Of a DNA stretch of 64,000 nucleotides, positions 22,956-23,732 are shown one piece after another. Within the stretch, counting starts at the first letter, position 1; every line of letters begins with the position of its first letter. Position numbers and translations under genes: made by a program. The notes beneath the pieces are model-generated. The model searched no databases. It was given only the letters and a program-made list of their open reading frames with translations, and was not told where the DNA came from. This DNA comes from Candidatus Latescibacterota bacterium (GTDB taxonomy: Bacteria > Latescibacterota > Latescibacteria > Latescibacterales > Latescibacteraceae): assembly GCA_016927495.1 (NCBI GenBank), contig JAFGMP010000040.1, positions 3,585 to 67,584 on the forward strand. The letters are read 5' to 3'.

Positions 22956-23732
22956 ATGAAAAAAGTATGGATAACAGCTCTCGAACATAATCAGGAACAA
23001 GTGCAAAAAGTTATGGGACTCGCCAGACAGTACGGCCTCGACGGCAATGGCCATTTCTGGGCTGACGACCTGATAAATATGGCCTGGTTGAGTGTCAAAG
23101 ATACTATTGTCTCTAAGGATACTTCTCTCTGGGTACTGATAGGTTCTCAAAAAAGTCTGGAGTCAGATTCCGTACGTCTTGGATTATCATTATTGACAAT
23201 GTCTGTTCAGGCGCAAAAGGGATATGGCTTCCCTCTAATGTTCGTCGATACCGGGGACAGTATTTCCACCGAAAATTGGCCTACGCCGCTTAAGAGTATG
23301 GATACAATTTCGTTTAACAGTCCATCCCTCGGCGCCAAAATGGTTGCGAAAGCAAATACTCCCGTTCCTGAAATTGTTACCGGGTATCGCCTCGACATCC
23401 ATGCCAGTCCTCATATCGGAGTGTGGTTTGAGATTGGCCCGTCGGGAAACACCGCATGGAACGGCGCTTTACTTGGAGCATCAGGCGGTAAAATCGATGC
23501 TCATGGAGTTGGCGATGCCGGCCATTTACCTCAAAAAGCGGTGCTGCGGTATCCGATGAAAGGTCTGAAATTACAGTCAGGAGATAAAGAATACACCGCA
23601 TGGGCCGTACAGAATAAACTGGATGAAAAACACTCGTATTATGTTCGTGTTCAGGATAAACCCGATAGTATAGTTTTCGGGTCGTATGAGTCGGAAGATG
23701 AAGCTTCCGTGCATGTTATTAATCTAATCTAA
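22956..23732 (+). CDS. Hypothetical protein, candidate T6SS cargo effector or accessory protein
   Basis: RBS GGGAGAAG, then ATG at 22956 (MKKVWITALEHNQ...). No signal peptide or TM segment. It lies immediately after the PAAR-like gene. The N-terminal roughly 100 aa show a weak flavodoxin/TIR-like pattern, which is speculative. Confidence 0.5.
   Translation: MKKVWITALEHNQEQVQKVMGLARQYGLDGNGHFWADDLINMAWLSVKDTIVSKDTSLWVLIGSQKSLESDSVRLGLSLLTMSVQAQKGYGFPLMFVDTGDSISTENWPTPLKSMDTISFNSPSLGAKMVAKANTPVPEIVTGYRLDIHASPHIGVWFEIGPSGNTAWNGALLGASGGKIDAHGVGDAGHLPQKAVLRYPMKGLKLQSGDKEYTAWAVQNKLDEKHSYYVRVQDKPDSIVFGSYESEDEASVHVINLI

Follow-up and report, generated by a model that had tools for sequence, protein, structure and literature searches.

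A stretch of 64,000 nucleotides from a Candidatus Latescibacterota genome (contig JAFGMP010000040.1), referred to in its full length as the window, carries on its forward strand at positions 22956-23732 a gene for a protein of 258 amino acids, which we term gene X and whose product is denoted as X. X is encoded by a real gene and belongs to a conserved and unnamed family of two-domain proteins that is tightly linked to type VI secretion system (T6SS) clusters of several phyla. Based on synteny and the predicted fold, we lean towards the view that X is a cytoplasmic, non-toxic T6SS accessory protein ('Tag'-type) or a regulator of a previously undescribed family, rather than an effector. We hold this view because of the linkage to T6SS genes in combination with a variable position among them, the proximity of ppkA and FHA genes, a conservation at the level of TssF, the presence in a single copy and the absence of both an immunity partner and a toxin fold. 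In a preliminary description of the same DNA, X had instead been proposed as a cargo effector that is non-covalently loaded onto a PAAR-like protein, which is not favoured in light of its conservation above that of the supposed carrier, its single copy, its varied positions and the missing partner. The fallback offered in the same description, an adaptor rather than a toxin, comes closest to the reading favoured here, and its link of X to the spike module of the T6SS is supported.

The association with secretion is evident in a set of 82 non-redundant X-centred loci, onto which the T6SS proteins of the window were mapped and whose neighbouring genes were clustered. T6SS genes are present in 38 of the 40 loci that contain at least 5 kb on both flanks of X. 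Within the clusters, the gene occupies several positions: it directly follows a PAAR-like gene in 22 of 76 loci and clpV in 14 of 76, it directly precedes vgrG in 12 of 72, it is also found between clpV and vgrG, and in about five loci and in L157 it is found upstream of tssK-tssL-tssM. The placement after a PAAR gene that was emphasized in the preliminary description thus holds for the window and for the 22 loci mentioned above, but it is only one of several arrangements across the family. The gene directly 3' of X is equally variable and encodes an RsbW-like protein in the window and VgrG, a protein of 255 residues, a TssBC-like protein, an MCP, TssK or others elsewhere, and no conserved downstream partner or immunity candidate is shared across the clustered neighbours. 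In the window, X is separated by 63 bp from the preceding PAAR-like gene and by 16 bp from the following rsbW-like gene, distances that are too short to harbour a hidden immunity gene, and the earlier statement that no such gene adjoins X was confirmed in this respect. Instead, the recurrent neighbours of X are regulatory and assembly accessories of the T6SS.

It is very unlikely that X would be a passenger with a function unrelated to secretion, which hitch-hikes in T6SS clusters. Such a role could be proposed for the relatives in L001/L028 and L030, where the neighbours of X are predicted to be surface or outer-membrane proteins and the nearest 10 kb contain no T6SS gene, but it conflicts with the T6SS content of nearly all well-flanked loci, which cover several phyla and several gene orders, and with the presence of only 225 clusters among 1.84 billion representative proteins, hence no broad housekeeping family. 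The loci from these two species constitute the only clear non-T6SS context that was found. In L001/L028 (positions 5309-9878) and L030, X is preceded by three genes whose products, each of about 440-530 residues, are predicted to be secreted or located in the outer membrane and belong to no clear Pfam family, with one of them showing a faint BNR match only.

A second pronounced feature of X concerns its conservation, which is at the level of the core baseplate. Across loci, its median identity to the window protein amounts to 49%, which is close to TssF (48%), above VgrG (45%), TssG (43%), TssE (42%), the PAAR-like protein (42%), TvpC (35%) and TvpA (34%), and below ClpV (68%), TssB (66%) and Hcp (60%). 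It would be unusual for a cargo toxin to surpass its carrier in conservation, to keep a uniform length across phyla and to occur in a single copy. The latter property is illustrated in loci with tandem VgrG-Tvp-PAAR modules (L013, L015, L020, L042, L053, L068), which contain a single X and thus leave one PAAR-like gene without it. These observations bear on the proposal that X is a secreted cargo effector travelling on the VgrG/PAAR-like spike, whose activity would be anti-eukaryotic or non-lethal and would therefore not require adjacent immunity. This proposal, which we consider unlikely, can draw on the toxin-less PAAR-like gene that immediately precedes X, both in the window and in other loci, an arrangement that is retained in relatives of only 35-39% identity, where the gap is 23-95 bp (L155, L157, L164), on the lack of a transmembrane segment or signal peptide, on the mass of 28 kDa, which fits spike-borne cargo, and on the use of TIR-like folds by some bacterial effectors. 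Besides the described conservation and the single copy next to tandem modules, it is disfavoured by the occurrence of X between clpV and vgrG, before tssK and after ppkA, by the lack of any conserved neighbour that would serve as immunity protein or adaptor, by the absence of a toxin domain and of a catalytic TIR glutamate, and by the nature of the hosts, for the most part free-living anaerobes of sediments or syntrophic bacteria.

The relationship between X and its PAAR-like neighbour was also investigated from the opposite side, in 80 metagenomic loci centred on closer homologues of the PAAR-like protein of the window. X is present in 12 of the 46 loci with enough downstream sequence and absent near the remaining 34, including the well-flanked loci L104, L116, L121, L122, L141, L142 and L165. 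All six loci in which the PAAR-like gene shares 69% identity or more with that of the window contain it, whereas homologues at 46-58% identity mostly have no X nearby. X is therefore a lineage-restricted addition rather than an obligate partner of the PAAR-like protein. A one-to-one linkage to a VgrG/PAAR module is likewise not found, since tandem modules share a single X, most PAAR-like loci lack it and the gene also follows clpV or ppkA. In five of the metagenomic loci (L089, L090, L092, L093 and L094), which encode the closest relatives of the PAAR-like protein of the window (69-77% identity), the genes are arranged in the order pentapeptide-repeat protein, PAAR-like, DUF3540 and X, with tvpC located after paar, whereas it is found before paar in the window and in Serratia.

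The modules that X accompanies in most loci correspond to the class III Tvp type, which is defined by DUF2169 (TvpA), pentapeptide-repeat (TvpB), DUF3540 (TvpC) and DUF4150 PAAR proteins encoded downstream of vgrG, and for which it was described in Serratia marcescens that a TvpAB/TvpB/TvpC pre-complex loads the DUF4150 protein Paar1 onto VgrG1 (PMC13373197). The window contains all of these families in the order VgrG, DUF2169, two pentapeptide-repeat proteins, DUF3540 and DUF4150 (13219-22892). X is located outside the described Tvp set and shows no sequence relationship with any Tvp protein, and the modules of Serratia, Burkholderia and many metagenomic loci do not contain it. This context has consequences for the possibility that X acts as an effector-specific adaptor or chaperone, which, in the manner of DUF4123, DUF1795 or DUF2169 proteins, would load an effector encoded elsewhere onto the PAAR-like/VgrG tip. 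X would resemble DUF4123 (Tap/TEC) and DUF1795 (Eag) proteins, which are cytoplasmic and non-secreted helpers encoded near vgrG/PAAR genes, in flanking the spike module in most loci and in being cytoplasmic, conserved and non-toxic in appearance. Nevertheless, we regard such a role as quite improbable. Adaptors normally adjoin their own effector, and X has no conserved effector-like neighbour. The profiles of DUF4123, DUF1795 and DUF2169 matched neither X nor any of 58 homologues, the module is already equipped with a full chaperone set consisting of TvpA, TvpB and TvpC (PMC13373197), and divergent members of the family are located in a ppkA operon upstream of a canonical VgrG/PAAR_motif module instead of a Tvp module. 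In the preliminary description, similarity to a housekeeping enzyme or to an adaptor family such as DUF4123 or DUF1795 was named as the result that would speak against an effector; no such match was obtained.

The gene itself is an intact open reading frame of 258 codons followed by a stop. A second in-frame ATG is located upstream at 22944, but the start was assigned to the ATG at 22956, since the latter is preceded at a distance of 5 nt by the Shine-Dalgarno-like sequence GGGAG (22946-22950, forward strand, as read from the sequence) and the homologues in an alignment of 58 sequences all begin with MKK(V/I)W. An exact match (100%) to X is the protein MBN1290612.1 of a metagenome-assembled genome (MAG) of Candidatus Latescibacteria. 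X is a soluble and acidic protein, with an isoelectric point of 5.9, and does not contain a single cysteine. The GC content of its gene (0.458) is similar to that of the adjoining T6SS genes, and a scan for promoters and terminators in its surroundings yielded the same counts as shuffled controls. Consistent with the preliminary description, no transmembrane segment was identified in X (maximum Kyte-Doolittle-19 score 0.78), a signal peptide is unlikely because the first strand of the predicted fold comprises residues 3-8, and searches of the protein with Pfam, NCBIfam and PADLOC returned no match that would provide a name.

The label 'orphan' given in the same description does not apply to X. 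A word-indexed protein search (E ≤ 1e-3) retrieved at least 313 homologues, the best 120 of which comprise 243-280 residues and share 48-69% identity with X along their full length. An exhaustive hidden Markov model search identified the 225 clusters mentioned above, defined at 50% identity, whose full-length members nearly all comprise 250-270 residues with the same two-domain span. When each GTDB species was represented by a single genome, a scan detected relatives in 175 species, mostly Thermodesulfobacteriota (Syntrophales, Desulfobacterales, Syntrophorhabdaceae) but also Latescibacterota, Acidobacteriota and others. The carriers are largely uncultured. The family is described neither in the 2026 paper on Tvp proteins (PMC13373197) nor in a review from 2026 that covers accessory factors of the T6SS, and full-text searches, including those on TIR-like T6SS accessory proteins and on the T6SS of Desulfobacterota, located no description of it.

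The architecture of the protein is illustrated in an AlphaFold2 model calculated from the 58-sequence alignment (pLDDT 93.4, pTM 0.91), which contains two domains. The N-terminal domain (residues 1-135; 22956-23360, forward strand) is predicted to adopt a flavodoxin-like, TIR/receiver-like three-layer α/β fold with five parallel strands and the C-terminal domain (residues 136-258; 23361-23729, forward strand) a generic nine-strand Ig-like β-sandwich. A Foldseek comparison of an AlphaFold model, as suggested in the preliminary description, places the TIR-APAZ subunit of SPARTA in all top 16 PDB matches of the N-terminal domain, with E-values of 4e-6 to 3e-4, 11-15% identity and TM-scores of 0.32-0.39, followed by dehydroquinase, LarB and the TIR domain of MyD88. 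REC and B12-binding domains score nearly as high as TIR domains in the structure comparison, and no PDB entry matches both domains of X together. The earlier guess of a flavodoxin- or TIR-like N-terminus is thus borne out at the level of the fold, whereas membership in the TIR family is not: a Pfam search of the 58 aligned homologues at E ≤ 10 matched no TIR-family, adaptor or Response_reg model, a Pfam search of divergent members likewise yielded no family name, and phmmer and profile hmmsearch against the PDB found no TIR protein and only chance matches with E of about 0.1.

That X would be a TIR-domain NADase toxin is, despite this resemblance, highly improbable. None of the 58 members matches the Pfam TIR family, and no conserved acidic residue is found in the region where the catalytic glutamate is located (residues 64-105, from strand C to the end of helix C), with no alignment column between positions 56 and 105 containing at least 70% Asp or Glu. 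The helix comprising residues 71-88 carries the sequence SVRYGLSLL, where R74 is conserved only in close relatives. The polar residues of the N-terminal domain are lost in divergent members, the invariant residues all reside in the C-terminal domain, REC and B12-binding domains nearly equal TIR domains in score, and no immunity gene is found. X shares the five-strand parallel β/α fold with non-catalytic or scaffolding TIR domains and with TIR-APAZ, from which it is distinguished by the missing profile match and catalytic glutamate, by low identity and TM-scores, and by the similar scores of REC, B12-binding, dehydroquinase and LarB folds; its context is the T6SS and not immunity or pAgo as in case of SPARTA. 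A functional CheY-like receiver was also rejected, as the phospho-acceptor aspartate and the conserved lysine are missing: the acceptor positions at the ends of β1 and β3 are occupied by T/S-L and G-S, which are not acidic. The same features, together with the absent Response_reg match and the extra Ig-like domain, distinguish X from pseudo-receivers such as FrzS and the N-terminal domains of TadZ/CpaE. As judged from the model, the fold of X appears closest to non-catalytic TIR or pseudo-receiver scaffolds. No toxin domain or toxin-like fold was recognisable in X with Pfam, NCBIfam, PADLOC or structure searches. The annotation of one homologue in UniRef as 'DAGKc domain-containing protein' could not be substantiated, since it has neither a DAGK_cat or NAD_kinase profile match nor a GGDG motif or a corresponding fold.

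The pattern of residue conservation directs the attention to the second domain. In an alignment of 45 sequences extending down to 21% identity, only E159, G186 and P192 are invariant, all of which are located in the C-terminal domain, as are the near-invariant positions G155, W157, P162, G170, G203, N220, S227 and P236, with G27 as sole near-invariant residue of the N-terminal domain. In the latter, the polar residues T7, H33, D37, D38, R74 and K128 are conserved in close relatives and lost in a ppkA-linked subgroup. Judged from this distribution, the functional core of X appears to be a site on the β-sandwich, while the TIR/REC-like domain seems more plastic.

Divergent relatives suggest a connection to known regulators of the system. 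Although they share only 21-25% identity with X, a comparison with hhalign (probability 99.7%, E 3e-26) identifies these members as genuine homologues, and they are found in L169, L172/L173 and L176 in the order tssK-tssL-tssM-(SLT)-PP2C (pppA)-Ser/Thr kinase (ppkA)-X-hcp-vgrG. The gap between ppkA and X is 14 bp in L172 and 34 bp in L176, and the genes precede the canonical VgrG/PAAR_motif module already mentioned. Elsewhere, a gene for a protein combining an FHA domain with an SLT lytic transglycosylase domain (FHA-SLT) is located directly upstream of X (L072, positions 1-1299; L076, 3495-4934), and FHA, PpkA or PppA are encoded within a few kb in L047, L048, L061, L077, L081 and L109, with PpkA-like or PppA-like genes specifically in L048, L061, L077 and L109. 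In L088 (2662-4938, forward strand), FHA-SLT is fused to X in a single open reading frame of 758 residues, which is followed by genes for a 255-residue protein, for a VipA/VipB-like fusion transcribed in the divergent direction and for an FHA protein; the FHA-SLT-X fusion may be an assembly error of the MAG.

The described neighbourhood invites comparison with TagF, a protein of about 230-260 residues that is encoded next to pppA/ppkA. As post-translational regulators, TagF and TagH/Fha are part of the threonine phosphorylation pathway of the T6SS (PMC13584744). X resembles them as a small, presumably cytoplasmic protein whose gene adjoins pppA-ppkA in divergent members and FHA genes in other members of the family. 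It differs in its fold and in the absence of a TagF_N (PF09867) or FHA match in X, the 58 homologues and the ppkA-linked divergent members. Moreover, the TagF-like placement is confined to L169, L172/L173 and L176 and is not found in the window, where a Che/PP2C/RsbW/STAS module takes the place of PpkA/PppA.

Several observations weigh against an accessory or regulatory role. The single position that X occupies most often is immediately downstream of a PAAR-like gene or one gene further on, a slot that often encodes cargo. Many class III Tvp modules with a similar PAAR-like protein do not contain X, which is therefore not needed for Tvp function in general, and in L001/L028 and L030 X is found away from any T6SS gene. 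A genuine fusion in L088 would, by its topology, imply a periplasmic location of X. Finally, the association with chemosensory control is suggestive only: among the 82 loci, 8 have Che or partner-switching genes at a distance of up to 5 kb from X, compared to 0 of 33 control loci without X, a weak relationship that could reflect inheritance within a lineage.

Provided that X is an accessory protein or regulator as we favour, it would act inside the producing cell in the assembly of the T6SS or its post-translational control. It could link a Ser/Thr phosphorylation module to the loading of the spike or baseplate, where this module might consist of PpkA, PppA and FHA proteins in some lineages and of a pathway leading from Che proteins via REC-PP2C to the STAS/RsbW-like pair in the window. 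The C-terminal β-sandwich may provide a conserved docking or ligand site that would be formed by the motif G-x-W-x-E159-x-G-P, the loop G-x-x-G-x-x-P around G186-P192, N220 and S227, whereas the less constrained TIR/receiver-like domain may serve as a non-catalytic module for oligomerisation or regulation. That X couples Ser/Thr phosphorylation to spike or baseplate assembly is a conceivable but doubtful extension of its proposed role. With similar reservation, we tentatively propose X as a new component of T6SS post-translational control and functional analogue of TagF/Fha, whose β-sandwich would dock on the spike or baseplate and whose TIR/receiver-like domain would be gated by Ser/Thr phosphorylation modules, with the chemosensory array of the window potentially deciding on spike loading or firing.

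In the window, X is embedded in a T6SS operon that is complete, with tssM being cut at the window start. All of its genes are encoded on the forward strand. The core genes tssM, tssA, tssB, tssC, hcp, tssE, tssF, tssG and clpV (85-13094), as identified with Pfam, are followed by genes for a VgrG of 978 residues (13219-16155; Phage_GPD), a DUF2169 protein of 595 residues resembling the PAAR chaperone TvpA (16243-18030; PF09937, E 4.9e-94), two TvpB-like pentapeptide-repeat proteins of 340 and 812 residues (18063-21525; Pfam Pentapeptide families), a DUF3540 protein resembling the VgrG mimic TvpC (21564-22472; PF12059, with the role taken from PMC13373197) and a Tox-PAAR-like (DUF4150) spike tip protein of 133 residues (22491-22892; PF13665, E 1.9e-34). 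The DUF4150 domain spans residues 12-114 of the latter, which carries no toxin extension, and X was thus correctly described as located directly downstream of a toxin-less PAAR-like gene. Equally accurate was the characterization of the next genes as regulatory and not immunity-like: they encode an RsbW-like Ser kinase/anti-sigma factor (23749-24165; Pfam HATPase_c_2, NCBIfam RsbW) and a STAS antagonist (24190-24522; Pfam STAS, NCBIfam ant_ant_sig), followed by a chemosensory cluster comprising Cache-MCP, CheW, CheR-TPR, a second CheW, CheA-REC, CheB and REC-PP2C (SpoIIE) (24695-34322; Pfam).

This chemotaxis-like cluster is located directly 3' of the T6SS genes, and its output protein REC-PP2C (SpoIIE) is paired with the RsbW-like kinase/anti-sigma factor and the STAS antagonist (23749-34322 in total). 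L004 and L008 show the same juxtaposition of T6SS, X and Che genes, and X is likewise adjoined by a Che cluster in L041. The T6SS of the window may thus be under chemosensory control. The Tvp modules vary in composition. The TvpAB protein is split in the window into the DUF2169 protein and the two pentapeptide-repeat proteins, and most loci of Thermodesulfobacteriota (L007, L010, L013 and others) encode one protein of about 1250 residues combining DUF2169 and pentapeptide repeats next to a pentapeptide-repeat protein of about 350 residues. In L004 (positions 1-5472; also in L005, L006 and L009), the Tvp module is preceded by a VgrG of at least 1904 residues, compared to 978 in the window; the X of L004 is 64% identical to that of the window.

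Two further genes recur next to X. One of them, with a length of about 530 codons, joins a VipA-like (TssB) N-terminus to the N-terminal domain of VipB (TssC), with no VipB_2 C-terminal domain found by Pfam, and its product is 21-26% identical to the TssC of the window. In 21 X-centred loci, this TssBC-like gene is an immediate neighbour of X, oriented in either direction and present besides the normal tssB/tssC pair (for example L042:8366-9949, forward; L011:1245-2855, forward; L047:11641-13257, reverse), and it may encode a pseudo-sheath accessory. The second encodes a helical protein of about 255 residues without Pfam match, directly 3' of X in 12 loci (for example L041:11055-11825, L081:10838-11602 and L088:5028-5795, all forward), often within a set composed of FHA-SLT, X, the 255-residue protein, a TssBC-like gene on the reverse strand and an FHA protein. 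The protein is no paralogue of X, and its gene occurs too seldom to serve as an immunity gene. Similarly, a second gene of 257 codons in L007 is no homologue of X, and an apparent fusion of X to a TssBC-like protein in L010 is an artefact of an overlapping reading frame.

The remaining part of the window is unrelated to X. A reverse-strand gene (34309-35535) encodes a protein of 408 residues with Spondin_N (E 7e-46), Big_7 and CarboxypepD_reg domains, the first of which is best known from animal F-spondin. On the forward strand, the region 36032-57939 contains at least six paralogous genes for PQQ_2/BamB-like β-propellers (starting at 36032, 37481, 39565, 44340, 49893 and 56614), which are interspersed with genes for Fe-S, NuoF-like and FAD oxidoreductase proteins and a transporter of the MacB/FtsX type.

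Collectively, our analysis has defined a protein family that is not yet covered by a Pfam model and whose genes nevertheless accompany the T6SS in at least 175 species, mostly uncultured anaerobes belonging to the Thermodesulfobacteriota, including syntrophs, the Latescibacterota and the Acidobacteriota. It also illustrates that a small gene following a toxin-less PAAR gene should not automatically be annotated as an effector. Accessory ('Tag') proteins set when, where and with what a T6SS fires, and those known to us originate almost exclusively from Proteobacteria and Bacteroidales. In this respect, should X function in regulation or assembly, it would offer a handle on T6SS control in such communities of anaerobes and a concrete candidate for the link that leads from Ser/Thr phosphorylation or chemosensory modules to the loading of the spike.

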